DNA of 64,000 nucleotides from Candidatus Xenobia bacterium. GTDB taxonomy: Bacteria; Vulcanimicrobiota; CADAWZ01. Under the pieces are notes generated by a model. That model did no database searches, was not told the origin of the DNA, and saw only the letters and a list, made by a program, of their open reading frames with translations. The translations under genes were made by a program, and so were the position numbers. How positions within the stretch are numbered: the stretch's first letter is position 1; every line of letters starts with the position of its first letter. This document shows positions 22,767-44,574 of the stretch, in pieces. The stretch covers positions 4,126 to 68,125 of the forward strand of contig JAVBNT010000038.1 in NCBI GenBank assembly GCA_031551355.1, given 5' to 3'.

Positions 22767-23295
22767 CCACCGATATTATTATTTTTTTGTTTCCCGCTCC
22801 GGGCAGGCTCTTCAGTGTATTTTCTATCTGTGATCTGCGCTGCATCATTTCACAGCTTCCGCCGCCGTCATTTATTGCTTTGTTGAAGTCGACTACGATC
22901 TTTTTTTCGTCAATTGTTATTGACTGAAGCTTAGTTTCAGAAGGCAGCGTTGTGTAATATCCACTTTTCTTCTCTTTTTCGTTCGGGCCTTCTATCAGCA
23001 TGGAGATTGCTTTTTCAGCAACTTCACGTTCACTGTTGCCTTCGACTTTTATTTCCAGAGGGTAAGTTTTTTCCGGAGACATTAAGTCGGGATCTTCTTT
23101 GTTTGATGCATAGAAAACAGCAATGGAACTTTGTGATGAAATGCTGATCGGAGGCTGTTTTTGTGTGCTGTGACGTGAGTCTGTTTTTGTCTCTGTCGGC
23201 ACCGAGTGCTGCAACTGAGATTTGTTTACATTGTATCCTGTGCATCCGCTTATAAAAAGAATTGATGATAATATACATAAAAATAAATTTTTCAT
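22735..23295 (-). CDS. GerMN-domain lipoprotein
   Basis: Lipobox 'LFISGCTG', and a C-terminal GerMN-like region 'KIVVDFNKA...NKKIIISVDG'. Start set at the internal Met (MKNLFL). Confidence 0.6.
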   Translation of the reverse strand: MKNLFLCILSSILFISGCTGYNVNKSQLQHSVPTETKTDSRHSTQKQPPISISSQSSIAVFYASNKEDPDLMSPEKTYPLEIKVEGNSEREVAEKAISMLIEGPNEKEKKSGYYTTLPSETKLQSITIDEKKIVVDFNKAINDGGGSCEMMQRRSQIENTLKSLPGAGNKKIIISVDGDNEKVLQP

Positions 23296-23346
23296 AAAAC
23301 CCACCTGTTTTAGAATAACTTTTTTAAACGGCATAGCCATACCTGT

Positions 23347-25548: not shown

Positions 25549-25551
25549 GTT

Positions 25552-26580
25552 ATGACTTTTCCGTTTAAACCCAAGATAGTAGGGTGGGAGCTTACAAGAC
25601 GGTGCAATTACCGGTGTCTTCACTGCGGTACAAGCTGCGGTGCGCCCAGAGATGATGAACTGACGCTTGATCAGGCCTATAAAATGATTGACGATCTTGC
25701 CGAACTTGGATGTGAAATACTCAATCTGTCCGGAGGAGAGCCGTTGATGCACCCTCATTGGGATAAGTTTGCCGTCAGATTGAAGGAAAACAATATTACT
25801 CCGTATATGATTACCAATGCTTACTATATTGAAGACAGTATTGAGCGCATATTAAATTCGCCTTTGAGGCGTATAGGAATAAGCATTGACGGTGATGAAA
25901 AGCTTCATAATCATATAAGGCAAAATCCTGAGGCTTATGCGCGTGTTCTCTCCGCAGCTAAACTTTTGAAAAAACATGGTGTTTCTGTCGGAGCCGTTTC
26001 TCATGCCGCCAAATATAATTTGCATTTGCTTGAGCACATGTATCAGGAATTTTTGAAAATACCGCTTGATTTCTGGCAGATTCAGCTGGCATTTTCCTCC
26101 GGCCGTATGAAGGATTATTCAAATGAACTTTTGGAACCGGAACAGCTTGTAGAAGTGGCAAAATTTATTGAGGAAAAACGCAAAGAAAAGAAAATGATGG
26201 TATGTGTCGGTGACAATCTCGGATATTACTCGTCATATGATATCGTTGATTCGCCCTGGAAGGGCTGCCATGCGGGCCGCTGGGTAGCAGGAATAGAAGC
26301 CGACGGCACGGTTAAAGGATGTCTTTCACTTACTCCTGAGTTTAGAGAGGCTAATCTAAAAGAGCGTTCTTTTAAGGATATCTGGCAGGACAGAGAACTG
26401 TTCAAGTATAACCGCTATTTCAATCCGGAAGATATGTCCGGCAACTGTAAAGGATGTGATAAGGCCCTTGACTGCCGCGGTGGCTGCAGGGTAACTTCTT
26501 TCTGCATGACGGGAAATGTTTTTGACAATCCTTACTGTCTTTACAGGGTTGAGAAGGAAGCTAAGTCCGGTGCAAAATAG
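25552..26580 (+). CDS. Radical SAM enzyme with a C-terminal SPASM domain
   Basis: 'CNYRCLHC' is the CxxxCxxC motif, and 'LSGGEPL' fits. The SPASM cysteines are 'WKGCHAGRW...GCLSL' and 'CKGCDKALDCRGGCRVTSFC'. Confidence 0.85.
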   Translation: MTFPFKPKIVGWELTRRCNYRCLHCGTSCGAPRDDELTLDQAYKMIDDLAELGCEILNLSGGEPLMHPHWDKFAVRLKENNITPYMITNAYYIEDSIERILNSPLRRIGISIDGDEKLHNHIRQNPEAYARVLSAAKLLKKHGVSVGAVSHAAKYNLHLLEHMYQEFLKIPLDFWQIQLAFSSGRMKDYSNELLEPEQLVEVAKFIEEKRKEKKMMVCVGDNLGYYSSYDIVDSPWKGCHAGRWVAGIEADGTVKGCLSLTPEFREANLKERSFKDIWQDRELFKYNRYFNPEDMSGNCKGCDKALDCRGGCRVTSFCMTGNVFDNPYCLYRVEKEAKSGAK

Positions 26581-27847
26581 ATTTGTACTGCCAAAAATAG
26601 AGAACGGTGCATTTTCTCCTTTTGCCGGTGTTGTTTTTTATCCTATTCTTTTGAATTCTTTTTCACTTACAGTGACTGTCAGAGATGGTGTTGCCTGGGA
26701 GGATGATTCCGGTTTTGGATGGGCGCATTTTCTGGAACATGCAAATTTTCAAAAGACGGATCGTTATGCCTCTTTCCTTGAAATTGCCTCATTAGCGGAG
26801 TCGCTTGGCGCCAGGATCAGTGCTTTTACAACCAGAGACTGCGTTACCTATTCCATTCATGCTCCTTCCTGGTCTCTTGAAGAATCGTTTCGGATTATGA
26901 CTTCGCTGATTTCCCATTTAAACTTTGAGGATGATATACTTGACTCTGAAAAAGAAATTATTTTTCAGGAAATGGAGAGAGAAAAGGCTAACTTTAGATC
27001 TTACTATGTTCTGTTTTCGGAAAGTGAACTGCTGTCTCCGTCGATGCTCGGTCGCTATAGTCTTGGTTCAAGAGAAAGTCTTCTGTCTATAAACTCTGCC
27101 AATATCGCAGATTATAAACGCAGAGTTTACAGCCGTGAAAATATCTGCTTGACTCTTTGCGGCGGTTTTGATCTGGAGACGGCTCAGAACCTTACCGGTA
27201 TATTTCTGGAATCGCTTCCGTCTGCTAAAGTGCGCTTGCTGCAGGACTATAATCCTGCAAAGATCTCGGAACGCAGACGATTATACCACTGTCCGTCGGC
27301 GGCGAATCAGGTGCAGATGATCACTTATTTCCGCTTCCCGGCAGTTGCTTATTATGACTGGCTTAAAGCTTCACTTGTAAATACACTTTTGGGCGTAGGT
27401 TTTTCGTCTTTGTTTTATAAAAAATTGCGCCATGAGCAAAAACTTACATATACTACCGCAACTCAGTTGAAATTATACCCTGTGGCCGGAACTTTCCGTC
27501 TTGTGCTTGACTTGGACCCCAAATCAGCATCTTTTGCCGAGAACCTGATCTACAATGTGATCGCGGAACTTGACGATATTTCTGAGAATGATTTTGTTTT
27601 GGCCAAAAATAAATTTTGGGGCGATATCGCATTTAAGCTCTCAGATATGAACTCTTACGGACTTTTTGCCGCCAGAAGACAGTTTATGGGAGAGGAGCGG
27701 CTTCTTTTGTCAAACCTTTATGAGGAATTGAAAAACATGAGCAGGGAAGAACTCTCGGCGTTTGCCGTAAAGAATTTCATCAGAGATAATTCTATCGTTT
27801 GCTTTGCCGGCAGTGATGAGGCTTTAAATACCGTTTCAAAACAGTAG
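26570..27847 (+). CDS. M16 (pitrilysin/insulinase) family zinc peptidase
   Basis: The inverted zinc motif HxxEH ('WAHFLEHANFQ') sits near the N-terminus. GTG 26570 after GAGAAGGAAG overlaps the rSAM stop. The ORF track start at 26516 would overlap by 65 nt. Confidence 0.75.
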   Translation: MQNRFVLPKIENGAFSPFAGVVFYPILLNSFSLTVTVRDGVAWEDDSGFGWAHFLEHANFQKTDRYASFLEIASLAESLGARISAFTTRDCVTYSIHAPSWSLEESFRIMTSLISHLNFEDDILDSEKEIIFQEMEREKANFRSYYVLFSESELLSPSMLGRYSLGSRESLLSINSANIADYKRRVYSRENICLTLCGGFDLETAQNLTGIFLESLPSAKVRLLQDYNPAKISERRRLYHCPSAANQVQMITYFRFPAVAYYDWLKASLVNTLLGVGFSSLFYKKLRHEQKLTYTTATQLKLYPVAGTFRLVLDLDPKSASFAENLIYNVIAELDDISENDFVLAKNKFWGDIAFKLSDMNSYGLFAARRQFMGEERLLLSNLYEELKNMSREELSAFAVKNFIRDNSIVCFAGSDEALNTVSKQ

Positions 27848-28645: not shown

Positions 28646-28837
28646 ATGAAAACAATCAGTAAATCGGTGGCAATGATAATCGTTCTAGCCATGATGATAT
28701 TTTCAGAGAATGCATATGCCAAAGTGTATTGCGAATATTGCAACAAATCTATTTCTTCCAGATCATTAATCAGGAACATAAAGTCTTGCTGTAACGAATG
28801 TCACAAAAAACGTGAACAAAAAAACTGGTTTACATGA
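28646..28837 (+). CDS. Small secreted Cys-containing protein (63 aa)
   Basis: Signal peptide 'VAMIIVLAMMIFSENAYA', then 'CEYCNKS...SCCNECHKK'. Its stop overlaps the next start (ATGA). Confidence 0.4.
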   Translation: MKTISKSVAMIIVLAMMIFSENAYAKVYCEYCNKSISSRSLIRNIKSCCNECHKKREQKNWFT

Positions 28838-29301
28838 AAGATAAAAACACGTCAACGGAAGGGAATGTATCCTTTAGATGTATGTTTTGCGGTAGAGATT
28901 TGGCGGACAGGCCGATAGCTAAGAACGGAAAGCAATACTGCGAAAGCTGTATTACTTTCGTTCCGGATAATCAAACGAAAAACCGAAATCCGTCAGGCAG
29001 TCAGTCAAATCAAAAAACGGCAGCCTGCCAGTGGTGCGGAAAATCAATAAGCGGAAAAATATACAATCGCTACGGCATGCAATACTGTGAACGCTGTCCG
29101 CCGGAAAAAAGTTTGCAATCGATATGCATCATCTGCAGGAAGCCAATAAAAAATGGTGCCTATAGTTCCGGCAATGAATTGTGCTGCTTTAGTTGTTCGG
29201 GCCCTCCTAAACGCTGCAAATCATGTGGAAAGGCAATATGGGGGTCTCAGGCTCAGAGGTATAAATTCTGTAAAAAATGCGGAGAAATAGAGAGCATTTA
29301 G
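28834..29301 (+). CDS. Protein with four tandem zinc-ribbon-like repeats
   Basis: The motif CxxC, 11-13 residues, (Y/F)CxxC repeats four times: 'CMFCG..YCESC', 'CQWCG..YCERC', 'CIICR..CCFSC', 'CKSCG..FCKKC'. Confidence 0.5.
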   Translation: MKDKNTSTEGNVSFRCMFCGRDLADRPIAKNGKQYCESCITFVPDNQTKNRNPSGSQSNQKTAACQWCGKSISGKIYNRYGMQYCERCPPEKSLQSICIICRKPIKNGAYSSGNELCCFSCSGPPKRCKSCGKAIWGSQAQRYKFCKKCGEIESI

Positions 29302-31861: not shown

Positions 31862-31989
31862 CATCAATCCTCCATCTTTGGCAATTTTGTAATAAGTTTG
31901 CTTTTCTTCATTTTTAATTGTATGATATAAGAAACTTATTATCAAGTACGCACATTTTTGTTCCCTTGTAAATATATTTTGGAGGACTT

Positions 31990-32337
31990 ATGAAAAAGAC
32001 AATTTGTTCAGAAGGGTTGGCGGATAATGGTGTTAATGAATGCCCTATTATTCATGCGATAAGATTGATTGGTCAAAAGTGGAAAATACCTATTTTATGG
32101 AAGCTCACGGAATACGATATGCTGCACTACAATGAATTAAAGCGTCAAATTCCGGGGATTACAAACACAGCGCTGACAAGATGCCTGCGGGAACTCCAGG
32201 AATTTGGTCTTGTCAACCGGCTTGAACATGGCACAATTCCACCATCTGTTGAATATAGTTTAACTGTTCGTGGCAAAGCGTTACTGCCTACATTTAATGA
32301 ATTATATCACTGGGGCAAGGAGCAAATGGGAACTTAA
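31990..32337 (+). CDS. HxlR-family transcriptional regulator
   Basis: 'CPIIHAIRLIGQKWKIPILWKL' is the HxlR wHTH signature. It is divergent from the nitroreductase gene. Confidence 0.8.
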   Translation: MKKTICSEGLADNGVNECPIIHAIRLIGQKWKIPILWKLTEYDMLHYNELKRQIPGITNTALTRCLRELQEFGLVNRLEHGTIPPSVEYSLTVRGKALLPTFNELYHWGKEQMGT

Positions 32338-32400
32338 TCGTAATCTGCCTAAAGGATAGACATAAGCAGGAATAAACAGCGATGTGTCGCTATTATTGAC

Positions 32401-34086
32401 TTAGTCCTTGAATGTCTTTATCCACTCCAAAAAATCATATTCCTGGGGGTTGACAATCAGCGTTGTTTCTCCGGATATTGTGACCATGCCCGGCGGCATG
32501 CCTTTTTTCTTGGCGACATTTTTCGCCAGGGTATATGATACCGGTACTTTTGCCGATTTTTTTGCTTTCGAGAAATATGCGGCAATGGTAGCCGCCCTGA
32601 CAATCACTTCGTTGGGCATTTTTTCACCGCTTTTAGTCCTTATTATCACATGACTTCCGGGGATTCCTCTGGTATGGAACCACAGATCCGCTTTGTTTGA
32701 TATTTTAAGACTAATCTCGTCGTTCTGTTCAGGGTTTTTTCCGGCAATAATGTCAAAGTTTTTGTAGGAATATCTTCTTGGGCCGGATGTAAAATGACTT
32801 TCTTTTGGTGCTGTTTTGCTCTGCCAGTTGAATAGATCAGAGGCATCCAAAAGCTGATATTCTTCAGTCGCTTTTTCCAGTTTCTCAAGATTTTCTTTAG
32901 CAATGATGATTTTCGAATTGCACTCATCAAGCCTCTGAGTTAAGATCGGAATTCCCCGCTGTGACTTTTTGAACTTCTCAAAATATTTTTGGGCATTGTC
33001 GCTGGCGGAAAGTGACGGATCCAATTCTATCTCTACTGTAGACGGCGGCGATTCATAGATGTCATCTACTTTTATACTCGTATCTTTCAGTCTTATCATA
33101 TAAAGATTGGTTAGTATCAGCTCGCCTTTGCGCTTTAGTTGCCTGTTTTTTTCCAGCTTTTCCAGATCGCCGGCGATGGCGGTTCGCTTTTTTAGCAGTT
33201 TTTCCAGCTCTTTTTTAAGCCGCAGCCTTAGTTCCTTTTTACGGGTTTCAAAATTCTCTTCCCTGTTGGCATTTTTATAAAAAGAGCAAAGCATATCGTT
33301 GACGCTGGAATGTTTTTCCGCCTCACCATCTCCGTGACCACCTATATCCCATAGAGAATATTTTTCCATTATGCCGTTTTGCGAGTAAGTCGTCGGCGCT
33401 AATTTTCCGCTCTCTATTTTTTGAAAAAAGTCATTCCACTTTTCCAGCAGTCCGGGATAATCCGTTACCTCTCCGCTTTGAACTGCAAGCAGCTGCTCTG
33501 CGGTCTCCTTTGAAAAGCCGATAAAAGTTTTTATTATTTTATCATTGAGCTTACCGGTGCCGTTTTCGAAGATGGTTTTTAATCGTTCTGCCGCCTGCGG
33601 TGACAGCGGATCACATTTGTGCGGCGGCAAGGAGGGAGCATAGTAATCTTTGTTTTCAGACATTCTTTTATCGCCCATGGTTCTGTAGGAACCCAGTACC
33701 TTATTGTTTCCCGACAGAAGTATGATATTGCCGTCTCGTTCATGAAACTCAAAAATCAGCTGCCATTGCGAAATTTTGTCACTGAAATTGAAGATGCTCC
33801 TTTTTTCAAATCCCTGGTTCTCTACGCCTGTAAGCCTTCTTCCCTGCAGGTATTTTCTCATGAGCATACAAAAAGACGACGGCTCTTTGCCGGCGGCTTT
33901 TTTGCCGTCAATAAGGTGAAATCTTTTATCTTCACCTTTTAGCTTTACAAACAAATTTTGCTCAACGATCCCGTAAAACTGGAAGATATAGCTTCCGTCG
34001 GACATCTCGTATATTTTTCTTAAAATATTGCCGCTCAGAATATTTGTCAGTTCTCTTGAGATTAAATATGTAATAATGCCGTCCAT
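32401..34086 (-). CDS. rqcH: RqcH / NFACT-family protein (FbpA-like, ribosome quality control)
   Basis: N-terminal NFACT-N-like 'MDGIITYLISRELTNIL...', a long coiled coil, and a C-terminal NFACT-R-like region. Length 561 aa. Confidence 0.8.
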   Translation of the reverse strand: MDGIITYLISRELTNILSGNILRKIYEMSDGSYIFQFYGIVEQNLFVKLKGEDKRFHLIDGKKAAGKEPSSFCMLMRKYLQGRRLTGVENQGFEKRSIFNFSDKISQWQLIFEFHERDGNIILLSGNNKVLGSYRTMGDKRMSENKDYYAPSLPPHKCDPLSPQAAERLKTIFENGTGKLNDKIIKTFIGFSKETAEQLLAVQSGEVTDYPGLLEKWNDFFQKIESGKLAPTTYSQNGIMEKYSLWDIGGHGDGEAEKHSSVNDMLCSFYKNANREENFETRKKELRLRLKKELEKLLKKRTAIAGDLEKLEKNRQLKRKGELILTNLYMIRLKDTSIKVDDIYESPPSTVEIELDPSLSASDNAQKYFEKFKKSQRGIPILTQRLDECNSKIIIAKENLEKLEKATEEYQLLDASDLFNWQSKTAPKESHFTSGPRRYSYKNFDIIAGKNPEQNDEISLKISNKADLWFHTRGIPGSHVIIRTKSGEKMPNEVIVRAATIAAYFSKAKKSAKVPVSYTLAKNVAKKKGMPPGMVTISGETTLIVNPQEYDFLEWIKTFKD

Positions 34087-34169
34087 TTTTATTCCTTTAA
34101 TTATAAATAAAGAGCCCGACGGACCAAACCGCTAAAGGGCTCTTATATCAATATTTTTTATTTAAATTA

Positions 34170-36680
34170 TTATTGTTTTGCCGCCATCTCGGCAATCTCC
34201 TCATCTCTTGAGCGCAAGAGCTTAAGCTCCTTGCCGTCGATGGTAATTTTGCTGGCCTTTATCGGCTCCGCAGATGAAGCACCCTGGAAAATATCTTCTC
34301 CCGGTTTCAGCTGTGACAGGATTGCCGCTACTTTTTTCTGGCATGCCAGACCTTTTTCAATGTCGAAAAATTCGCCGAAGAACTTTGAAATTGTTTCTTT
34401 ATTCTCTTCCACGGTAGGATCCATGGCCGCCATTGTTCTTATCTGGCTGTTAAGGCTGGCAAACTCCACTTTTGTTGTGCTGTCTTCAAAATTGTTACAT
34501 GTCAGCTTTACTTTGATGCCTCTCTTGCCCGTTTCCTGAAGCAGTTCGCCCAGTTCCCTGTCACCGTCAATACTGGCCCTGTCAATGGTAATCTCCTGCT
34601 GTGCATCCTGAATTCCGGCTTTCTGCCAGTGTTCGGAGAATTTGCCGCGGGCGATTCTGAGCATCTCCTCGTGGGTAACCATATTTCCGAATCCGCGTGT
34701 CTCATCCATAGACTGTCTCGACAGGCTGTGACTGCCGACATATGCTTTTTCCTGATCTATTTCGATATAGTTATTGCTGAGCGAGTCAATTTTCATTTGT
34801 GCAACATTGGCGCCGCTTGCTTTTAAATCCTCAATCATTGCCGCATCCTGCGGTTTGAGTTTTCTCGGTCCGAGTATGATATGTACCGGTATACCCTGTT
34901 TGGCTTTGGCTTTGATTATTTCCGCCATTTTTCTGTCGGTAAGTTCCTTGGTGGTTATCTTAATACTCTTTTCCGCACTGTTTAAGAGACTGGTCAGCTG
35001 CTGTCTGGCGTTCCCCGGACTTGCGACCACTTCCGATGTTGGCGACAACTCGGCAGCTTTTCCGCTGGCAGACGTTTTTTCCGCATCAGCGCGCAGCATT
35101 GTTTCAATTTCTTTTACGTCTTTTTCCGAGATGTTTATAACTCCGTAAGAGTTGTTGTATTTGAATGCCGAACCGGAAAGGTTGTCCGGGAATGTTATTG
35201 ATTCCTTACCGTCGACAAGGACACAGGTTCCCTGCATGGATTTGTATGTCGAGTCGGTCATTTGTACTTTTACGCCGGCTTCTTCAAGTTCTTTGGCTGT
35301 GTCAATGTTAATAACGCAGTTCGGATCCCAGGGGAATGGATTCTGCGGCATCATTACCGTTACTTCCACGCCGTCTTTGGCTGCCTTCTTTAATGCGTTT
35401 TTCGTGCCGCCGTCGGAGAAAAGGTTCGTCTGGATAATGACTTCCTTCTCAGCTGTTCTGATCGCCCCTTTTACCGCAGAGCCGATGGCACTGGGATCGC
35501 TTATAACCATTTTTGAGGGAATCGCAAATCCTTTATCCCGGTAACGGTCTATCACTCCGGCCAACTGTTCTTTTTCATCGTGGAAGATATATCCAAGTTC
35601 ACGGTTTTTGTCAATTGCGGACATGCTGAAGTTTTGCGAGCCGATATATGTCTTGGATTCTTTCGTGCCTTCATCAATATTCACGGCTTTGGCATGTATG
35701 TACGGCGTAACAAGGAAGCTTACGTCCGCACCTTTGAGTGCGAGATATGCAGCATTTTGCATGTTACCCTGGGCGATTCCCGGATCGGTAAGTGTCAATT
35801 CGGTTTTTACGCCTTCGCTGAGTTTCTGTGCCAGAAGGTCGATAACGCCTTTATCCGTAAAGCCCTGCTGCAATACATGTATGGATTGCTTTGCGTTACC
35901 GATAAGACCGGTCAGCTTGTCCCTGGCATTGTCGGGACTGATTACCAGATTTGTCTCACCCATGTCAGGCAGTTCAACTCTTTCCCAGTCGGAATTGAAT
36001 ATCGTCTGAATCTGATTTACTACCTTGGGGTTTTCAATCATGATAGCCCCGAGATCGAGATTCTTTTTGAACGTTGAACTTCCTAGATTGCCGGTAAGTA
36101 TCAGCGCTTTTTCGCCGTCAAAAACCATACTCTTTTCATGAGTGACCCTGCTTTTGGAGAATACCGGATTATCCGGTTTGTACTCGGCGCCTGCGGCAAC
36201 GAGCTCTTCGATGGCTTTTTCACTGGGGTTTGCTTTTTGCTGAGTCCAGTAGAACGGATCGTCTTCAACCATCAGCCTTACCTTAACACCTCTGTCAAGG
36301 GCGTTGTGGAAGGCAGTCATCAATTCGGGGGTGTTGGCCGTTATAATATAGATATGAAGGTCTATTGATTCTTTGGCATTGTCAATCATGGAAACAAGGG
36401 TTTCCAGACCGTTTTCTTTCATAACGACAATGTCCGGAGCCGGATCCAGAGGGGCCGCTTTTTGCGGGGATTGTGATTCAGGTTTTGCTGATGCGGGAGC
36501 TGTTTGCTTCGGCTTTGCCTTTGAACGTGAGGCAGACAGGCTTATATCGGCCACATCAGCCGTCGAAACCGAACTACTGCTTTCAGGAGCGGCCTTGGCA
36601 GGTATTGGCGTTTGATCGTTTTGCTGTATTCCTATTGAAATGCTCTGGGGAAAATTAAAGTTCAAGTTGCCAATATTCAT
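34170..36680 (-). CDS. Large protein with four phospholipase-D-like repeats (two canonical HKD motifs, two degenerate) and a low-complexity N-terminus
   Basis: 'VTHEKSMVFDGEKALILTGNL' and 'YIHAKAVNIDEGTKESKTYIGSQN' are the HxKxxxxD...GSxN motifs. Later repeats 'YKSMQGTCVLVDG' and 'YIEIDQEKAYVGSHS' lack His and Lys. N-terminal Pro/Ser/Ala-rich region with no signal peptide. Confidence 0.7.
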   Translation of the reverse strand: MNIGNLNFNFPQSISIGIQQNDQTPIPAKAAPESSSSVSTADVADISLSASRSKAKPKQTAPASAKPESQSPQKAAPLDPAPDIVVMKENGLETLVSMIDNAKESIDLHIYIITANTPELMTAFHNALDRGVKVRLMVEDDPFYWTQQKANPSEKAIEELVAAGAEYKPDNPVFSKSRVTHEKSMVFDGEKALILTGNLGSSTFKKNLDLGAIMIENPKVVNQIQTIFNSDWERVELPDMGETNLVISPDNARDKLTGLIGNAKQSIHVLQQGFTDKGVIDLLAQKLSEGVKTELTLTDPGIAQGNMQNAAYLALKGADVSFLVTPYIHAKAVNIDEGTKESKTYIGSQNFSMSAIDKNRELGYIFHDEKEQLAGVIDRYRDKGFAIPSKMVISDPSAIGSAVKGAIRTAEKEVIIQTNLFSDGGTKNALKKAAKDGVEVTVMMPQNPFPWDPNCVINIDTAKELEEAGVKVQMTDSTYKSMQGTCVLVDGKESITFPDNLSGSAFKYNNSYGVINISEKDVKEIETMLRADAEKTSASGKAAELSPTSEVVASPGNARQQLTSLLNSAEKSIKITTKELTDRKMAEIIKAKAKQGIPVHIILGPRKLKPQDAAMIEDLKASGANVAQMKIDSLSNNYIEIDQEKAYVGSHSLSRQSMDETRGFGNMVTHEEMLRIARGKFSEHWQKAGIQDAQQEITIDRASIDGDRELGELLQETGKRGIKVKLTCNNFEDSTTKVEFASLNSQIRTMAAMDPTVEENKETISKFFGEFFDIEKGLACQKKVAAILSQLKPGEDIFQGASSAEPIKASKITIDGKELKLLRSRDEEIAEMAAKQ

Positions 36681-36686
36681 AAAATA

Positions 36687-37046
36687 CTACCTGCCTTTCT
36701 GAACTAAGGACGTTATGTCCTGTAAAAAACGGACTAATTCATCCAAACTCTCAAGGTTGCCGATGACATTTACAATATCCCGGTTTTCCTTGTCATAGCT
36801 GAATTGTTTGCCTAAAAGCATAATCGGTTGATTTGTTTCGTCGAGAAGTCTCGAAAATTGATATCTTATCCGTCCTTTGGGATTAATATAGAACTGATGA
36901 TTTATCCCGTTTTCTTCTTTTACCGCACTGATATTTTCCGTGACCGATGAATCAAATCCGGCTTCTTCGAGAATTTTTATAATAACCTCAGTATTGAAGT
37001 CCCAAGCCATACATAATCTCCTAAACGTTATTAAAAGATTGTTCAA
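36687..37046 (-). CDS. Small acidic hypothetical protein upstream of, and cotranscribed with, the PLD-repeat gene. Possibly YbjN/chaperone-like.
   Basis: 119 aa. Its stop is 6 nt before the PLD gene start. No motifs recognised. Confidence 0.3.
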   Translation of the reverse strand: MNNLLITFRRLCMAWDFNTEVIIKILEEAGFDSSVTENISAVKEENGINHQFYINPKGRIRYQFSRLLDETNQPIMLLGKQFSYDKENRDIVNVIGNLESLDELVRFLQDITSLVQKGR

Positions 37047-37427
37047 TATTTTTACAATTGAATTATACCATGTTTACTTTCTTCAATGATTGCATAAAAT
37101 GTTAAGATAATGTTAATATTTGGAAATGTTTTGCTCTGCTGTTCGTTAAGCGGCGGGCGGAGAGTTAGATGCGCATCACTGCATGCAGGTGACGCAGATG
37201 TGTCTCAGTGATAATTTTAAAACGCAATCAATCATGATTGTAGCCGTAAATATCCGCAATGCTTATCCGGGCAGTAACGCTGCTATATTATTAATTTTGC
37301 CGTTGGTTGCAAAAATAAAAAGATTTTAGGTATTATTGCTGTTTGACTTTCCGTAATCAATTTTTTCTGTTATAATTTTAGAAAATAGAACTTAGTTAAA
37401 ATATAATTTTTAGGAGGGCATTCTATT

Positions 37428-38141
37428 TTGTTAAGATTAAGAAAGAGAAAAAAAGGCTTTACTTTAGTGGAAATGGCGTTGGTGATTCTGATAACTTCCG
37501 TTCTGGTTATTATAGCTTTTTCATCACTTATGGGCCGCCAAAAGCACGCCGCATTTGAAGCAAAGGCCAGTTCCCTGAAAGACTATCTCACTAAATGTGC
37601 TTCTTACTCTAATACAACCGGGCAAACTCTTTATTTACGTTTTCAAACCCAGGACGATGGAGCAGGGGCACCTGTTTCCGCGATTATTGCTGTTCCTATG
37701 ATACCGCATCAGCTACCTGCGGATATTGCCAACTGGAGGCCGGATGATGCCGCGATTTCAACTGTGAATGGAGTCAGTACGCCCTGGGTAAGGTGTTCAC
37801 TTGCTCTCTGGGGGATGACAAACAATACCGACCATAGCAAACGTCCTCTGCTTAACAACGGCCAACTGTCCGGAGATCTGGCGGAGAGGTCTGTCACTGC
37901 AAACGACATAGAGATTAATCCCGGAAGTTCACCGGCTTACGTTATTGGGCGCGTTGAAACTGTTAATATGAGAAATCCTCATAACCATAATCATGATACG
38001 TTCCCGGTAATTATTATGGATAATGCTATAGGAAGTAAACGTACTATGTCTTATGCCCTTGAAGTTATGGGCAGCGGAAGTGTTAATATGTATTTTGGAA
38101 AATTTAGAAACAGCCAATTTTCTTACACCCCTAAACAGTAA
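37428..38141 (+). CDS. Type IV prepilin-like protein (N-terminal cleavage/methylation domain)
   Basis: 'KKGFTLVEMALVILITSVLVIIAF' is the G|FTLxE prepilin motif followed by a hydrophobic helix. TTG start after AGGAGGG. Confidence 0.7.
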   Translation: MLRLRKRKKGFTLVEMALVILITSVLVIIAFSSLMGRQKHAAFEAKASSLKDYLTKCASYSNTTGQTLYLRFQTQDDGAGAPVSAIIAVPMIPHQLPADIANWRPDDAAISTVNGVSTPWVRCSLALWGMTNNTDHSKRPLLNNGQLSGDLAERSVTANDIEINPGSSPAYVIGRVETVNMRNPHNHNHDTFPVIIMDNAIGSKRTMSYALEVMGSGSVNMYFGKFRNSQFSYTPKQ

Positions 38142-38144
38142 TGT

Positions 38145-38702
38145 CTATTGCCCGATTGCGGAATCAATTATATTAAAATCAATGGATTCTTTGACTGAGA
38201 AGGCCTGCCCGGAAGAAATTATTTTTTCCAGCAGGTCTTTGTTTAATCCGGTGTATTTTTGAAGGTATGATATAATCAGATCTTTTGCCGAGACGATCGC
38301 CATGCCGGCTTTTTCAAGATCCGTATCACCGCTGTCTTTTACCCATAGATTTTGTTGCAGGGAAATTTTTGAGTGCCCCAGCGCAAACCGAAGACCTTTT
38401 GTTCCGGCGCAAAGAAGTATGGCTGCACCTCCTGATGCTTCTTCAAGGCATATGGTCGACACATTATTTTTTATTTTGTCTATTTTGTCACAAATAGACA
38501 GGAATGACCTTACGTTTCCTCCGGAAGAGTTTATATACAGATCAATTTTACCGTCGTTAGCCGATAAAATATCCAGCATCTCTTCTATTTGCAGGCCAAT
38601 ATTTTCGGTAAGCACCCCGTCAATAAGGATAATTCTTTTTTCTATAAGATTTTTATGCATTTCCTGAAGGCGCTCTGTTACGGTTTTCACGGTTTTACTC
38701 AT
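38145..38702 (-). CDS. ClpP-family (TepA-like) serine peptidase homolog
   Basis: The ClpP/crotonase-like core is 'IDLYINSSGGNVRSFLSICDKI' and 'EEASGGAAILLCAG'. Confidence 0.6.
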   Translation of the reverse strand: MSKTVKTVTERLQEMHKNLIEKRIILIDGVLTENIGLQIEEMLDILSANDGKIDLYINSSGGNVRSFLSICDKIDKIKNNVSTICLEEASGGAAILLCAGTKGLRFALGHSKISLQQNLWVKDSGDTDLEKAGMAIVSAKDLIISYLQKYTGLNKDLLEKIISSGQAFSVKESIDFNIIDSAIGQ

Positions 38703-38809
38703 CGATGGCTCCTACCTGATTATTTTTTGCAGGTTTTATGTTCTGCAAGCGTAAATATCTTCCCTGTAGTACAGTTATGGCGGAAAATATATTTTTCAGG
38801 AAATAATTT

Positions 38810-39766
38810 ATGAATAAAGCGATTGTAATTGTTCCTGGTGAACCTTCGGGGGTCGGGCCGGAAATAACGATTGGTGCGCTCAGAGAGTTGTTTGCCGGTG
38901 GTTTTGCTCAAAAGGTTGTTGTTTTTTTTGATGAAAATACGCTGAGCAGACTTGCTGCTGCCGTTGGGCCTTTGAATGAAATGCTCTTGTTTAATGATAA
39001 ATCTTTTTTTTCCGATTTTATGCCGGGTAAATTTTTTTATATACCGGTCGCCGCTACGGATGAAAAATCCGTTGCTGTCACGGCAATAAGAAACGCAGCC
39101 GATTTTTGCTTGGAAAAACCCGGCGGCAGAATAATGGTTACCGGACCGATAAACAAATGTATCAGCAACAGTTGTATAGGCTCTCCGTTAGGGCATACTG
39201 AAATTTTATCACTGTATACAGGGGGGGAAAATCTTGAGACCGTGTTCTGTCTTGACGGGTTGAAAGTTTTTTTTCTGAGCCGCCATCTGAGTCTTGCCGA
39301 AGCTCTGAAACTTGTAAGGAAGGATAATATTTTAAAGGCAATCCGGTCGATGTATACCAATATGAAGATTCTTGGCTGTGCTGCTCCCAGGCTTGGTATT
39401 GCCGGGCTTAATCCGCATGCCGGCGACAATGGTTTATTTGGCAGGGAAGAGAAGGATGAGATTTATCCTGCTGTAATGCAGGCTTTGACGGAGGGTATTG
39501 ACGTTACCGGCCCAATCGGCGCTGATTCTGTTTTCTTTCAGGGATTTTCCGGCCGGTTTGATGCGGTTTTGTCGTTGTACCATGATCAGGGACATATTGC
39601 CCTTAAGAGCAGAGACTTTTTCGCAACTGTGACGATGACGCTGGGAATGCCTTTTCTACGGACATCCGTTGACCATGGAACAGCTGAAGATATAGCCTGG
39701 AAGGGGATGGCAAAAAACGACAGCATGGTAAATGCAATTTTACTGGCGGAAAAACTTTTATTTTAG
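38810..39766 (+). CDS. PdxA-family NAD-dependent dehydrogenase (4-hydroxythreonine-4-phosphate or 4-phosphothreonate dehydrogenase type)
   Basis: 'AIVIVPGEPSGVGPEITIGA', 'HTEIL' and 'GLNPHAGDNGLFGREE' are typical PdxA motifs. Confidence 0.75.
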   Translation: MNKAIVIVPGEPSGVGPEITIGALRELFAGGFAQKVVVFFDENTLSRLAAAVGPLNEMLLFNDKSFFSDFMPGKFFYIPVAATDEKSVAVTAIRNAADFCLEKPGGRIMVTGPINKCISNSCIGSPLGHTEILSLYTGGENLETVFCLDGLKVFFLSRHLSLAEALKLVRKDNILKAIRSMYTNMKILGCAAPRLGIAGLNPHAGDNGLFGREEKDEIYPAVMQALTEGIDVTGPIGADSVFFQGFSGRFDAVLSLYHDQGHIALKSRDFFATVTMTLGMPFLRTSVDHGTAEDIAWKGMAKNDSMVNAILLAEKLLF

Positions 39767-39818
39767 GAAAATCACTTGACAGGTGTTTAATAATTTTCTA
39801 TAATTACCTGCGTATGAT

Positions 39819-39890
39819 TGAGGCGTAGCCAAGTGGTAAGGCATCGGTCTTTGGATCCGACATTCCCTGGTTCGAATCCAGGCGCCTCAG
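39819..39890 (+). tRNA. tRNA-Gln (anticodon TTG)
   Basis: U1-A72 acceptor TGAGGCG/CGCCTCA. D-arm 'GCCAAGTGGTAAGGC' closely resembles E. coli tRNA-Gln. Anticodon loop CUUUGGA. T-arm CCTGG-TTCGAAT-CCAGG. A TATAAT sits 14 nt upstream. Confidence 0.8.
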
Positions 39891-39892
39891 TC

Positions 39893-40453
39893 TTATTTTT
39901 TTTGAGCTTTTGCGATGTATTCGGCAAATTTATTTACAAATAAATCGCGTTTTTCTTTTGAAGGGAAAAATTTAAACGGGATGGCATGCGCTCCCTTATC
40001 GTCAGAAGTAATAAAAAACAGATAATCTTCGCTTTCTTCAAATCCGGCAATTTCATCCCATCTTATTTTTAGATCGCCGTAACTCGTCTTTACTTCAATT
40101 CCATCATCACCGATAATGTAATTTCTTGTGCCCTCTATCTGCAGTTCTGCCGCCGATTTTTTCATAAAAGATTTTTCGGTGTGTCCGATTGTGAATTTAT
40201 GAATTATTTCCGGAACAACTCTCAGGCCGAAAATAACGGCTATTACCAGCGTGCATATCAGCATAGTCTCGAGAAAAGACTTCATATCGCCAATGTTCAT
40301 CATCAGCGATACCAGCAGCATAATTAAAAAAAGCATAATCGCCTGATTTAATCTTTTCCCGAGAGGAATTGTTCCGTTTAGGCGTATATAATTGTATAAG
40401 GCAAACATGTCTTTGTTTGTCAGTTCGATTACAACTCTGTTTGTGTTTTCCAT
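39893..40453 (-). CDS. YcxB-like membrane protein, paralog of the gene at 23347..23928
   Basis: Two TM helices 'AIMLFLIMLLVSLMMNIG' and 'MLICTLVIAVIFGL', then a soluble C-terminal domain. Confidence 0.4.
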   Translation of the reverse strand: MENTNRVVIELTNKDMFALYNYIRLNGTIPLGKRLNQAIMLFLIMLLVSLMMNIGDMKSFLETMLICTLVIAVIFGLRVVPEIIHKFTIGHTEKSFMKKSAAELQIEGTRNYIIGDDGIEVKTSYGDLKIRWDEIAGFEESEDYLFFITSDDKGAHAIPFKFFPSKEKRDLFVNKFAEYIAKAQKK

Positions 40454-40507
40454 AAAATTTTTGCTGCAGAGGCCGTAAAGTTACGGCCTCTGAGAAGATT
40501 TAATCGG

Positions 40508-41161
40508 TTATTTAGACTGTTCGGTCTTTTTATTTTTCTCTATAGAATACAGATATCCCGAATTTTTCGACCATTTTTTGTCGATGAAACTGTTTTTGGC
40601 ATCATAAATTTGCAGTGCCTGATACATTCCCATATCATTTACGTATTTTACGAATACTTTAGGCAGTTTTTCCGGTTTTATCCAGTAAGGATGCATTTCT
40701 GTTTTTGATGTGGCGGCCAGACTGATGCTCTTTCCGTCTTTGAGTAAAATTTTATATCCCGGTCCGTCTTTTTCAGCTTTTCCGATGACAATATAAGTAT
40801 TTTTTCCGGCAGGCATTGCATCTGTTTTATCAAATTTCTTTTTTACACAGCGGCATTTTTCGCAGCAAAGGCAGGCTCCTTTGCAAGTGCATACCATTTC
40901 ACATTTGCAGTCTTTGCAGCATTTACAGTCTCCGAGGCACTCGCATTTTTCCTTACATACGCATTTTTTGCAGCAACTGCACTTGCCGCCGCATTTGCAT
41001 GACTGTATGCATTTACAGTCTTTGCAGCATTTGCAGTTTACTTCCATCTTTGTTGCTTTTGTTTCCTTTGCCGGTGCGGCAGGCTCAGCTGCGAACAGGC
41101 TGCAGGATATAAGAATCATCCAGGCCGCAAAGATTGCAGCAATTTTTGCAATAGCTCTCAT
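40508..41161 (-). CDS. Lipoprotein or secreted protein with an extreme Cys-rich (metallothionein-like) domain fused to a C-terminal domain of about 110 aa
   Basis: Signal with possible lipobox 'LISC'. The segment 'CKCCKDCKCIQSCKCGGKCSCCKKCVCKEKCECLGDCKCCKDCKCEMVCTCKGACLCCEKCRC' has about 28 Cys in about 70 aa. Confidence 0.6.
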   Translation of the reverse strand: MRAIAKIAAIFAAWMILISCSLFAAEPAAPAKETKATKMEVNCKCCKDCKCIQSCKCGGKCSCCKKCVCKEKCECLGDCKCCKDCKCEMVCTCKGACLCCEKCRCVKKKFDKTDAMPAGKNTYIVIGKAEKDGPGYKILLKDGKSISLAATSKTEMHPYWIKPEKLPKVFVKYVNDMGMYQALQIYDAKNSFIDKKWSKNSGYLYSIEKNKKTEQSK

Positions 41162-41253
41162 AACTTATAAAATCCCCCTCTTAAATAGATTTGTCTGTTA
41201 GACCACTCATGGATTCTATCCTCAGCGGTCGATACCTTTTTTAAGGATAGGCC

Positions 41254-42261
41254 TTAACTTTCCTTGATCGTGACCCCGCTGTGACTTAGATAGAACGGAA
41301 GAATTTGCGCTCCTGCCCCGGCGATGGATTTTTCCACATTGGCTTTATCTTCAGGGCGGCAAACGGTTACCAGACACCCACCTCCGCCGGCACCGCATAT
41401 TTTAGACGCAAGGGCATTGGCTTTTTCGGCAGCGAAAATTATGGAATCAACTTTTTCATTGGTGACTCCTTCCGCCAGGCACTGGCGGTTGGACCATTCT
41501 TCTTTTAGAGCCGAAGCGATGTCCGTAAGACTTTCTTTTTTTATGGCCTCCCACATTTTTGATGAGGTTGCCTTTATTCTTCTCATGCAGTCTCTTGTCA
41601 CCTGGTTTCCGTCAATATAGCTTTTCATCATGTTCCAGTTATTGGTTCCTGAAAAGTGTGATATTCCGGTAAACGACAATACTACGCATTCCGAGATCTT
41701 ATTCAAAAATAATTTGGTGTTCAGTGAATTTTCATGAGTTATACCATGATCTGTAAAATGTATGGCACTGATACCTCCGAAGTAGGCACTGTAATAATCC
41801 TGTTTTCCGGTAGGGATGCCAAGGCTTCTGGCTTCTATATTGGCGCACCAGTCGATAAACTTGTGCGGATCGGCTTCTTTACCGCAGACTCTGCAAAGTC
41901 CATACATGAGCGCCACGAGCAGGCTTGATGAGGCCGCCAGCCCCGAACCATGCGGGACAGAGCTTTCCGTAGTTATTTCCAGGCCCGTTTCAGGCTTGAA
42001 AAAATGTATCGCCCGTGCAATAAGGTCGAGTGAGCCGTTGGTTTCCAGCAAGTCGATATTATCCGCCGCTATTTCTTTTTTTAAATCTTTGGAATAGACT
42101 TTGATTTTTTTATCGTTTCTGGGTGATATCTCTACCGTAGTCGGCAGGTTTATGGCCATGTTTACTGTTAGGCCGCCTTCTTCAAATATATATAAAGGAA
42201 AGATGTCCAGAGTTCCTCCGGACAAATCTATTCTTGTAGGTGCGGTTATTTTTAAAGGCAT
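41254..42261 (-). CDS. GHMP-family sugar or small-molecule kinase
   Basis: 'PHGSGLAASSSLLVAL' is the GHMP ATP-binding motif, and the C-terminal 'GAGGGGC' fits. Confidence 0.7.
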   Translation of the reverse strand: MPLKITAPTRIDLSGGTLDIFPLYIFEEGGLTVNMAINLPTTVEISPRNDKKIKVYSKDLKKEIAADNIDLLETNGSLDLIARAIHFFKPETGLEITTESSVPHGSGLAASSSLLVALMYGLCRVCGKEADPHKFIDWCANIEARSLGIPTGKQDYYSAYFGGISAIHFTDHGITHENSLNTKLFLNKISECVVLSFTGISHFSGTNNWNMMKSYIDGNQVTRDCMRRIKATSSKMWEAIKKESLTDIASALKEEWSNRQCLAEGVTNEKVDSIIFAAEKANALASKICGAGGGGCLVTVCRPEDKANVEKSIAGAGAQILPFYLSHSGVTIKES

Positions 42262-42496
42262 TGAATTTTCTCCCTTTATTTATTTGTTTTTCATAAAACC
42301 TGTAGGGTTCGTTTACCATTTATTTAATAGTGGACTGAAAAATTCAATAATCGCGATGTTTTTCCCTTGCGGTGAACGATCAATTTTTGCTTTTGTTTGA
42401 AGAGATTTGCCCTTTAGAAGGACACTTATCATACTTTAAAGAAACTTAAAATTTATCGTCGTTTTATTATGATGTTTTATTAAGGAGCTATTAAAA

Positions 42497-43687
42497 ATGG
42501 AGAAAATATATCTCGCAGGAGCAGTAAGAACTCCAATTGGTGCCTTTCTTGGTTCTTTATCTACGCTTCATCCCAAAGACTTGGGAGCTATTGTTATAAA
42601 AGAATCAATTAAAAGGGCGGGATTGGATGCCGATGTTGTGGACGAAGTCATTATGGGCTCTGTTTTGCAGGGCGGGTTAGGGCAGAATGTTGCCCGCCAG
42701 TCCTCTATTGCCGCCGGTTTGAGTGATAAAATTCCAGCGTATACCGTAAATATGGTTTGCGGTTCGGGATTGCGATCGGTTATTGATGCCGCCAGAATAA
42801 TAGCTGCAGGTGAAGCTGATGTTATTGTTGCCGGTGGTGTGGAGTCAATGTCTTTTGCTCCGTATGTTTTGCCTAAAGCAAGAACAGGGCTGCGTATGGG
42901 AGATGCCGAGTTGAAAGATCTGATGATTTTTGACGGACTAACCTGTGCCCTGGGTAATTACCATATGGGAATCACTGCGGAAAATGTTGCCGGGCAGTTT
43001 GCCGTAACGAGAGAGCAGCAGGATGCTTTTGCTTTTGAAAGTCAGAAAAAAGCTGCCATAGCGATGGAAACCGGTATTTTTGATGAAGAAATTGTTTCTG
43101 TTTCCATCCCTCAGAGAAAAGGTGATCCGGTGGTCTTTTCCAAGGATGAGCATCCGAAGCCGTCGACGACGGTGGAATCGCTTGCTAAATTGCGTCCCGC
43201 GTTTAAAAAAGACGGTACAGTGACGGCCGGAAACGCTTCGGGAATAAATGACGGAGCCTCTGCCGTAGTCGTTTTTTCTGAAAAGGCTGCAGCCAAATAT
43301 GGGATTACACCGATGGTTTCTTTGTCATCCTGGGCTTACGCCGGTGTAGATCCGTCCATTATGGGTATAGGACCGGTGGAGTCGGTAAGAAAGCTTCTTA
43401 GTAAATCGGGAATAAAACTTGAAGATATTGATCTTGTCGAAGCTAACGAAGCATTTGCTTCACAGTCTATAGCTGTCGGCAAAGAACTTGGCTGGTATGG
43501 AAACTCAATGGCGGACAAAGTTAACATACATGGGGGGGCTATCGCTCTTGGCCATCCGATAGGTGCGTCAGGAACAAGGATTTTGACAACGCTCATGTAT
43601 GAGATGAAGAGGAGCGGCCTTTCAAAAGGGCTTGCAACTCTTTGTATTGGCGGTGGCATGGGCATTTCCGTTCTTGTTGAAAAATAG
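42497..43687 (+). CDS. Acetyl-CoA acetyltransferase (thiolase II)
   Basis: 'NMVCGSGLRSV' has the active-site Cys. 'GNASGINDGA', 'HPIGASGTRIL' and 'CIGGGMG' also fit. Confidence 0.9.
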   Translation: MEKIYLAGAVRTPIGAFLGSLSTLHPKDLGAIVIKESIKRAGLDADVVDEVIMGSVLQGGLGQNVARQSSIAAGLSDKIPAYTVNMVCGSGLRSVIDAARIIAAGEADVIVAGGVESMSFAPYVLPKARTGLRMGDAELKDLMIFDGLTCALGNYHMGITAENVAGQFAVTREQQDAFAFESQKKAAIAMETGIFDEEIVSVSIPQRKGDPVVFSKDEHPKPSTTVESLAKLRPAFKKDGTVTAGNASGINDGASAVVVFSEKAAAKYGITPMVSLSSWAYAGVDPSIMGIGPVESVRKLLSKSGIKLEDIDLVEANEAFASQSIAVGKELGWYGNSMADKVNIHGGAIALGHPIGASGTRILTTLMYEMKRSGLSKGLATLCIGGGMGISVLVEK

Positions 43688-43745
43688 TGTTGTCTGTCCC
43701 CGTCTAATAAAACCTGGGGGGATCGGATGATAAAGGGAGGTTACT

Positions 43746-44120
43746 ATGTCTATTGATCAAAAGAAAGTTGTTGAGGATTTTTACAAACTGCTTAGAGACA
43801 GGGATTCGGATGCCTTTATTGAGCTTTTTGCGGAGAATGCCTCCGTTTTTTTCCCGGGTGTATCACAGCCTTCGGGGACATATCTGGGAAGGGACAAGAT
43901 AAAAAGATTTTTCAGAAAGATGTTTACCTTTGTTCCCGATATGAGTTTTGAAATGACAAGGGTTATTCATTGTGAAAAGACCGTCTGCGTAGAATGGTCG
44001 CTTTCCGGAAATACAAGAAAAGGCGGTCTTGTTCTTAAAAACGGAGTGTCGATCTTTGAGGTGGACGGATACTCCATAGTGTCGATGAATAGTTATATTG
44101 CTTCCGGACTTTTTGTCTGA
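43746..44120 (+). CDS. SnoaL-like / NTF2-fold small protein
   Basis: 124 aa. 'VVEDFYKLLRDRDSDAFIELFAENASVFFPG' is typical of SnoaL-like domains. Confidence 0.5.
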   Translation: MSIDQKKVVEDFYKLLRDRDSDAFIELFAENASVFFPGVSQPSGTYLGRDKIKRFFRKMFTFVPDMSFEMTRVIHCEKTVCVEWSLSGNTRKGGLVLKNGVSIFEVDGYSIVSMNSYIASGLFV

Positions 44121-44244
44121 AATCAATTGAAATTGGCGAATCTGCGTCGTCAAATCCGATTTCGCTCATTCCGCCGTAGGAAGACTACGGCTCACTCGTC
44201 GAAACCGGACTTGCCTTGGCACCTTCACCAATTTGAATTGATTT
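44121..44244. repeat. MITE-like element (family B), second full copy
   Basis: TIRs 'AATCAATTGAAATTGG' and 'CCAATTTGAATTGATT' (one mismatch). The internal 'TTTCGCTCATTCCGCCGTAG...CTACGGCTCA.TCGTCGAAA' is shared with 28238..28360. Confidence 0.6.
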
Positions 44245-44574
44245 AAATTTCAATTTTGATAAATTCCCCTCCTTTGGAGGGGTGTCGTGGAGCGTCGGGG
44301 TGGTTTCCGCTATAGTTGTGCGGCTACGCCGCATGGACGATTGCAAGCCTGCAGGGCGTGACAATCCAGCCGTTTGTTTTTTGGGGATTGCTTCGTCTAT
44401 GCTCCTCGCAATTACCTAAAGAGAATTGCCTGCGGACTTTTTGTCACTGCCAAGAATACTCTTTCTTAATTAATGCCTATTGAGATAAGACTATGGCTAA
44501 TTTGTCGAAATCAGACCTTGCTTTAACGGTTTGAATTTATTTAAAAACTAATTTAATTTTAAGGAGGAGTATTT

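Follow-up and report, generated by a model that had tools for sequence, protein, structure and literature searches.

What might a bacterium gain from a dense, repetitive array of cysteine (Cys) residues in a protein that, from its sequence, is destined to leave the cytoplasm? This question is raised by a gene at 40508..41161 on the minus strand of the 64,000-nucleotide stretch of Candidatus Xenobia bacterium DNA analysed here (assembly GCA_031551355.1, contig JAVBNT010000038.1, positions 4,126 to 68,125; hereafter the window), whose product we call the Cys-repeat protein. The answer that we favour, with a confidence a little under even, is an extracytoplasmic thiolate-based metal-binding sponge that would be metallothionein-like by convergence; all statements on the function of the protein are computational. 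The gene, its ribosome-binding signal and the parts of its product are arranged as follows.

40508..41161, minus strand: gene of the predicted exported Cys-repeat/beta-barrel protein, a complete single open reading frame (ORF) of 217 residues plus stop, with an ATG start
41174..41180, minus strand: Shine-Dalgarno-like GAGGGGG, 12 nucleotides upstream of the ATG, read from the sequence
41090..41161, minus strand: predicted Sec-type signal peptide, residues 1–24 (MRAIAK, hydrophobic core, LFA↓A), from the charge and hydrophobicity profile
41036..41089, minus strand: Ala/Pro/Lys/Thr-rich linker AEPAAPAKETKATKMEVN, residues 25–42, modelled as disordered
40847..41035, minus strand: Cys module, residues 43–105, 3.5 copies of the 18-residue repeat CxCCxxCxCxxxCxCxxx, with 26 Cys and 14 Lys
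41035, 40981, 40927 and 40873, minus strand: starts of the CxCCxxCxC motif within the Cys module
40511..40834, minus strand: conserved C-terminal small beta-barrel domain, residues 110–217 (108 residues), from the family alignment (A2) and AlphaFold2

The Cys-repeat ORF is a genuine gene. A frameshift, an assembly artefact, a contaminant or non-coding low-complexity DNA might be invoked for such a run of Cys, the more so as public gene callers do err here: the database entry P0010 (133 residues) is the C-terminal end of a 305-residue ORF (L009 7485..8402), P0011 (95 residues) that of a 222-residue ORF (L014 1595..2263), and P0015 a 102-residue fragment of the window protein, and at both L009 and L014 other-frame or opposite-strand ORFs have been called across the Cys-rich part. 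The Cys region was dropped in all three of these truncated entries, so that such proteins are under-represented in protein databases. An artefactual origin is nevertheless effectively refuted, and we leave it next to no probability. One unbroken ORF links the signal peptide to the conserved domain; an independent Logan assembly of run SRR23967709 matches 31938..44281 of the window at 100%, with the identical Cys-repeat protein included, and an 84.5-kb contig at NCBI also encodes the identical protein; in seven other family proteins, from contigs with 40% to 58% G+C, a Cys-rich region is in frame with a signal peptide and the C-terminal domain; the Cys columns are perfectly kept while the codons and the adjacent residues vary; and the gene is located in a syntenic bacterial chromosomal context. 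The three full 54-nucleotide DNA units of the repeat are identical to one another at only 33–36 of 54 positions (61–67%), with every Cys retained, and Tandem Repeats Finder reported no 54-nucleotide array, indicating that the repeat is old rather than a product of slippage or assembly. The preliminary description of this locus, made from the sequence alone, had already judged an artefact unlikely, and the divergence of the DNA repeats, the independent assembly and the conserved Cys columns agree with it. Two plus-strand ORFs that overlap the gene (40816..41112 and 40881..41201) mirror the low-complexity run and are without a conserved counterpart. A GGAGG stands at the position equivalent to the Shine-Dalgarno-like sequence in the orthologous loci, and the upstream regions of seven loci have no operator-like palindrome in common, just AT-rich promoter-like sequence and the Shine-Dalgarno element.

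The Cys module was first described as having about 28 Cys within about 70 residues; the density stands, whereas the count is corrected to 26 Cys in 63 residues (41%), accompanied by the 14 Lys, the protein as a whole containing 27 Cys with the remaining one (C20) in the signal peptide. Measured against the mean Cys content of 1.26% in twelve long ORFs from the window, a 63-residue stretch would hold 26 or more Cys with a binomial probability of about 1e-32 (8e-33). The CKC, CC and CxC spacings with interleaved Lys that had been pointed out are borne out and turn out to belong to a strict 18-residue repeat, in which the Cys spacing 2,1,3,2,4,2,4 recurs and a CxCxxx hexad forms a sub-period. All 19 of the 19 Cys that could have a Cys partner 18 residues further on do have one, a number equalled by none of 200,000 composition-preserving shuffles (best, 15). 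The module is positively charged (15 Lys and Arg against 7 Asp and Glu) and contains no Phe, Tyr, Trp or His, the relative P0005 having three Tyr. In the full-length AlphaFold2 model (5 sequences), which is unusable as a whole with a mean predicted local distance difference test score (pLDDT) of 44.7, the module is unstructured (pLDDT about 30).

The relative P0005 was found by an exhaustive HMMER scan of 1.84 billion representative proteins; it has 208 residues, is 54% identical to the window protein and shows an identical Cys spacing. The modules of the two proteins agree in 26 of 26 Cys columns, with the codon changed in five, as against 14 of 37 (38%) of the other columns, the DNA being 70% identical. 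This disparity points to purifying selection on the thiols, and the thiol array is, as judged from the alignment, under strong selection. The same CxCCxxCxC motif, at the same 54-nucleotide spacing and right before the C-terminal domain, recurs in a distant clade of the family (clade B, below): the motif-to-motif distance is 54 nucleotides in the window protein, P0005, P0016 (L009) and the L014 ORF, and in every Cys-bearing member the Cys region closes with CxCCxxCxC immediately before the barrel. Elsewhere in about 200 kb of six-frame translation, the motif was not found.

Export of the Cys-repeat protein is indicated by sequence features kept in every complete member of the family. Its N-terminus carries two positive charges ahead of a hydrophobic core (about 17 residues) and LFA↓AEP, and the same n/h/c layout is present in all 12 of the family proteins with complete N-termini. 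The preliminary description had left open a signal or a lipobox-like N-terminus; the Sec-type signal layout is upheld, whereas the lipobox is not conserved. The sequence LISC (residues 17–20) of the window protein does fit the pattern [LVI][ASTVI][GAS]C, but none of the homologs has a fitting lipobox, all of them carrying signal peptidase I sites of the A/S-x-A/S type a few residues later, and cleavage by signal peptidase I is therefore the more likely. The mature protein would have 193 residues and a mass of 21.5 kDa. The N-terminus MRAIAK contains no twin-arginine motif.

The fused domain of about 110 residues noted earlier is real and conserved in alignment A2, and is modelled as a small OB-like beta-barrel. 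Its motifs include GKAEKDGP and QA.QIYDAK in the window protein and, across the family, G-x-x-x-x-DGP, T..T...P, VKY and QA.(Q/E)(I/V)YDAK. AlphaFold2 applied to the domain only (11-sequence alignment) gave a confident model of eight strands, with a pLDDT of 88.3 and a predicted template-modelling score of 0.81. When this model was compared with the Protein Data Bank (PDB) by Foldseek, the top four matches were CusF structures (expectation value (E) 5e-3 to 1.5e-2; template-modelling (TM) score 0.57–0.64, target-normalised), with SilF lower in the list and IF1, cold-shock and proteasome OB domains close behind CusF. None of the 11 members matched Pfam CusF_Ec at E up to 10. In A2, Gly, Pro, Thr and Ala columns are invariant and Asp nearly so; an HPYW string is present in the subclade of the window protein and absent from P0006, P0007 and clade B. 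The model thus points to an OB-like small beta-barrel that is not a member of the CusF family, and the resemblance to CusF is suggestive, not probative. A relation to NosL was also considered, as the single sequence gave hints of it (PDB 2hpu, E = 1; Pfam NosL, E = 0.061, 14 bits against a cut-off of 24); these are below the cut-off, are gone with the family profile, and concern a protein to which the all-beta model bears no likeness.

About 13 distinct family proteins, none of them annotated, emerged when 5.8 billion and 1.84 billion proteins were searched. The full window protein matched nothing in Pfam or NCBIfam at E up to 10, and no family member has a Pfam domain. The distribution of homologs, a point that the preliminary description wished to see checked, is hence that of a very rare family of about 13 proteins in two clades. 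The C-terminal domain is common to all members, and the Cys-rich region ranges from 0 to about 200 residues, as follows.

P0001–P0004, clade A: no Cys region
P0006 and P0007, clade A: Cys region with 11–12 Cys
Window protein and P0005, clade A: Cys region with 26 Cys
L014 ORF 1595..2263, P0009 and P0016, clade B: Cys region of 105 to about 200 residues, rich in Cys, Gly and Lys

In a neighbour-joining tree of the barrel domain, calculated without bootstrap support, the Cys-free proteins are the sister of the window protein and are nested among Cys-bearing members. On this simple tree, the nesting suggests that the Cys module is ancestral and length-variable, with loss or shortening in some lineages, and not an insertion into the window gene.

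A profile of the Cys module found nothing among the 5.8 billion proteins at E up to 10, and a metagenome scan brought back only one contig already in hand. The match of a profile search to P0012, a 1302-residue repeat protein (E = 7e-5), was judged to be a spurious match to its beta-repeat. The sole match in a scan of species-representative genomes (L004 6639..6716) lies in the N-terminus of a Cas3 of a Nitrospiraceae metagenome-assembled genome, where the identity of the 10 residues GKAEKDGPGY was judged a coincidence of the pattern-driven search. A separate protein, P0013 (L015 785..1147), has 120 residues with a signal peptide and CxC-x3/5-CxC repeats, 16 Cys in all, and no beta-barrel; it matches Pfam Metallothio weakly (E = 0.01), and its contig of 1.3 kb is uninformative as to context. 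P0013 suggests that further exported CxC-repeat proteins exist.

Next to the Cys-repeat gene lie two features on the same strand.

39893..40453, minus strand: gene of a YcxB-like protein (Pfam PF14317, E = 4e-12) of 186 residues with two predicted transmembrane helices
40467..40492, minus strand: GC-rich hairpin with an 11-bp perfect stem (free energy −21.4 kcal/mol, z = −4.3), in the 54-nucleotide gap to the YcxB-like gene

The YcxB-like gene is directly downstream in 7 of 7 clade-A loci, with a gap of 3–60 nucleotides, and is kept even in L010, although secA and a release factor gene upstream there replace the usual GHMP kinase gene. The hairpin has no immediate U-tract and was not flagged as a canonical terminator; it could act as a partial terminator or as an mRNA stabiliser setting the ratio of the two products. 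A search of the literature for the repeat motif or YcxB found nothing useful. On the far side of the YcxB-like gene, between it and a pdxA gene, stand a perfect sigma-70 consensus promoter (12/12; TTGACA-17-TATAAT, 39776..39804, plus strand) and, directly after it, tRNA-Gln(ttg) at 39818..39892.

In both clades, the Cys-repeat gene is repeatedly accompanied by thiolase, GHMP-kinase, SnoaL and xanthine-dehydrogenase-like genes, on contigs of 36% to 58% G+C, which looks like inherited synteny within one lineage. The window is otherwise an ordinary chromosome, with recA, RNase Y, fabHDG, mutS2, PASTA kinase, GerMN and RqcH genes, and its genes include radical SAM, ferredoxin-type and nitroreductase ones. 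Genes for [FeFe]-hydrogenase, lysine aminomutase and 2-hydroxyacyl-CoA dehydratase on related contigs make an anaerobic life probable for this uncultured host. Sampling of the lineage is poor, as every housekeeping protein that was checked forms a cluster by itself at 90% identity. Several genes of the window recall Firmicutes/Terrabacteria, namely those of PASTA proteins (a PknB-like PASTA kinase and two more), RNase Y, GerMN and NFACT/RqcH.

57771..63363 (minus strand), 14782..16440 (plus strand), 22735..23340 (minus strand) and 32401..34086 (minus strand): gene set reminiscent of Firmicutes/Terrabacteria

ComG-like pseudopilins are also encoded in the window, as is a 155-residue ORF (28834..29301, plus strand) with several CxxC pairs, zinc-ribbon-like and without a Pfam match. 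At 24346..27847 (plus strand) lies a cluster resembling those for ribosomally synthesized and post-translationally modified peptides, composed of an MFS transporter gene, a radical SAM/SPASM maturase-like gene (25552..26580) and an M16 peptidase gene (26516..27847). Bacillithiol genes occur at two clade-B loci (L009 514..3170 and L013 504..4953), where bshC, a bshA-like gene (GT4) and, in L013 only, a bshB-like gene (PIG-L) follow the GHMP kinase gene that in the window is a neighbour of the Cys-repeat gene; the window has no bsh genes, and the linkage is missing throughout clade A.

By the mechanism that we favour, the Sec signal peptide would carry the unfolded chain over the cytoplasmic membrane and, from its sequence features, would most likely be cut after Ala24. 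The (CxCxxx)n module, disordered alone, would then wrap several soft metal ions in metal-thiolate clusters like those of metallothioneins. The assumption of such clusters, and with it of metal binding by the Cys array, derives from the Cys density and the CxC, CC and CxxC spacings, the flanking Lys, the lack of aromatic residues and His, the lack of a hydrophobic core for a disulfide-rich fold, the predicted disorder without cargo, and the length variation. Accessory metal-binding tails typically vary in length, and the CC and CxC spacings and the absent hydrophobic core would fit an all-disulfide fold poorly. Cu(I) would be the likeliest ion, with Zn, Cd, Ni or Co also possible; it is our first guess because the CxC-x3-CxC spacing resembles that typical of Cu-thioneins and of the beta-domain of vertebrate metallothioneins. 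The beta-barrel may serve as a folded handle to dock, anchor or hand over the metal-loaded module, possibly with the co-transcribed YcxB-like membrane protein, and the length of the module (0 to about 200 residues among the orthologs) would set the capacity of the sponge. Its role could be to buffer or detoxify thiophilic metals, or to scavenge them in competition with sulfide. A Cys sponge outside the cytoplasm would be workable only where thiols stay reduced, which matches the anaerobic gene content of the family contigs.

The proposed sponge is worth comparing with the known systems. The resemblance to metallothioneins in composition that was noticed at the outset holds good: with 41% Cys, CxC, CC and CxxC motifs including CxC-x3-CxC, Lys next to Cys and no aromatic residues or His, the module is like those of eukaryotic Cu/Zn metallothioneins (the vertebrate beta-domain and the fungal Cu-thioneins), and it is modelled as disordered, as reported for apo-metallothioneins (PMC7558416 and general knowledge). 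Unlike these, the window protein has no detectable homology, is built on a strict 18-residue repeat and is predicted to be Sec-exported; and metallothioneins are usually below 10 kDa and free-standing, whereas the module here is a domain of a 21.5-kDa two-domain protein. A phmmer search of PDB chains found nothing at E up to 10, and BLASTP against human MT2 (hand-entered sequence) gave only compositional matches of 9–11 residues (E = 0.08); the module is accordingly described as metallothionein-like, yet as a member of no metallothionein sequence family known to these searches.

The described bacterial metallothioneins are SmtA-type proteins, with a zinc-finger-like fold, His ligands and about 9 Cys, and MymT, of 4.9 kDa (PMC7558416). 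SmtA/BmtA, including PmtA, and MymT are like the window protein as bacterial Cys-rich proteins presumed to bind multiple metal ions through thiolate clusters, but neither type is described as exported, whereas the window protein combines a signal peptide with a repeat array of 26 Cys and matches no model of either. PmtA has been detected on the cell surface, yet it is without a signal peptide (PMC11237414). The architecture emphasised in the preliminary description, a hyper-Cys module with an export signal fused to a domain of about 110 residues, is kept in independent relatives, and its view that a metallothionein-like domain outside the cytoplasm is unusual is supported by the absence of matches to curated families and by the case of PmtA. 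We know of no bacterial metallothionein that bears a signal peptide.

The system closest in function, and the one known Cys-based store that is exported, is Csp1, a Cys-lined protein that keeps multiple Cu(I) ions bound to thiolates in the bacterial periplasm and is a pre-folded four-helix bundle tetramer exported by the twin-arginine (Tat) route (PMC7558416). The window protein differs from it in having no twin-arginine, a Cys region that is a non-helical low-complexity repeat and a folded part that is all-beta; no helix outside the signal peptide is predicted in its models. CusF and SilF, the best structural neighbours of the domain model, are small periplasmic OB-type beta-barrels, as the model suggests for this domain, and have signal peptides, but they share no sequence-profile similarity with the family, in which the His/Met/Met/Trp site of CusF is not conserved, and the window domain has extra C-terminal strands (8 in total, about 76 of 108 residues being aligned). 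The RND, MFP and OMF trio of CusCBA or Sil is adjacent in none of the loci, a lone OEP gene being present in L014. Periplasmic sponges of the SilE/PcoE type are disordered, exported proteins with Met and His in short repeats, encoded in metal-resistance operons. They have in common with our proposal the concept of a disordered, exported, multi-site metal buffer with short repeats; Met and His suit an oxidising periplasm, however, whereas the window protein uses Cys and is not part of a metal-resistance operon. A Sec-exported, repeat-built Cys sponge on a beta-barrel would therefore be a novel form of a familiar kind of metal store, in a very rare, unannotated family.

Several observations weigh against the metal sponge. 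The orthologs P0001–P0004 are without any Cys module, so that the conserved core function of the family would be independent of it. No sequence similarity to known metallothioneins was found in Pfam, NCBIfam, the PDB chains or human MT2. No metal transporter, sensor or resistance gene (Cu, Zn, Cd) is adjacent in any of 10 loci, and the only MerR-type regulator of the window sits 32 kb off. The likeness to CusF is weak: the best E is 5e-3 with none below 1e-3, the query-normalised TM score is 0.47, and the similarity grades into generic OB folds; hhalign of the A2 profile with Escherichia coli CusF (hand-entered sequence) gave a probability of 0.1%, and none of the His, Met, Trp or Cys positions of the barrel is invariant in A2. 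Finally, the sponge presupposes an extracytoplasmic space in which thiols would stay reduced.

The main rival takes the module to be a thiol/disulfide element, serving an oxygen-sensitive bacterium as a sacrificial sink for oxidants at its surface, or else a disulfide cross-linking or stalk element of the envelope, for which Cys-rich envelope proteins offer an analogue in principle. The extracytoplasmic location, the extreme density of thiols, the lack of adjacent metal genes and the dispensability of the module in some orthologs would all suit it, and the clade-B gene lies 1–5 kb from the bacillithiol genes bshC, bshA and bshB; this linkage is absent in the window and in all of clade A, however, and appears to reflect synteny inherited around the GHMP kinase gene. 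Disulfides between vicinal CC and CxC pairs would moreover be strained, there is neither a hydrophobic core nor an aromatic residue for a disulfide-rich fold, and Lys conserved beside Cys is, from general knowledge of metallothioneins, a hallmark of metal-thiolate clusters. We consider a redox or disulfide role unlikely, though the least so of the rivals.

The same thiol density and periodicity could also belong to a carrier, not a sponge, whose Cys array holds iron-sulfur-type clusters, persulfide or polysulfide sulfur, or thiophilic metalloids (As, Se, Hg), in keeping with a probably anaerobic host whose habitat is likely to be sulfidic and with a xanthine dehydrogenase-type molybdo-flavoenzyme conserved nearby in both clades. 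Such a cargo appears improbable: neither CxxCxxCxxxCP, as in ferredoxins, nor any other known cluster motif occurs in the module, a chain exported unfolded by Sec has no known route for acquiring iron-sulfur clusters outside the cell, and in none of the loci do sulfur-transfer, ars or mer genes adjoin the family gene. Lower still, at a very slight probability, stands the idea raised in the preliminary description that the Cys segment is a substrate of a radical SAM/SPASM or other peptide-modifying enzyme, a precursor of thioethers like those of ranthipeptides or SCIFF peptides. The window does hold a maturase-like gene with M16 peptidase and MFS transporter genes (24346..27847), and at L003 a further radical SAM/SPASM gene is about 5 kb away from the ortholog. 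The former, however, is 14 kb distant with unrelated genes between and is not syntenic with the family, the L003 ortholog has no Cys module, and nine other loci (L002, L005, L007 and L009–L014) have no adjacent maturase. There is, then, no adjacent co-conserved radical SAM/SPASM maturase as in SCIFF/ranthipeptide systems, a Sec signal stands in place of the leader peptide, and radical SAM maturases are generally known to modify cytoplasmic peptides that bear a leader, rather than Sec proteins with a folded domain attached; the gene context gives this idea no support.

Returning to the extracytoplasmic metal sponge, we hold it possible, with somewhat more reserve than the general reading, that the window protein represents a founding Sec-exported bacterial metallothionein: a modular (CxCxxx)n sponge of up to about 45 Cys on a CusF-like barrel, confined to a little-known anaerobic lineage in which the repeats have been expanded, trimmed or deleted to tune capacity. 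The described bacterial metallothioneins are few, and the known periplasmic buffers use Met and His or the rigid, Tat-exported bundle of Csp1; a positive result would place a flexible, Sec-exported Cys-cluster sponge beside the Met/His buffers and the Csp1 bundle as a third solution. The family is also an annotation blind spot, its Cys region having been dropped by gene callers in three database entries, and in practical terms it may offer a compact, naturally exported, high-capacity metal-binding tag for bioremediation and metal-recovery engineering. If the proposal is true, Cys-cluster metal storage in bacteria would not be confined to the cytoplasm when the environment is anoxic, and the family would illustrate the way in which anaerobes deal with thiophilic metals outside the cell, in competition with sulfide.

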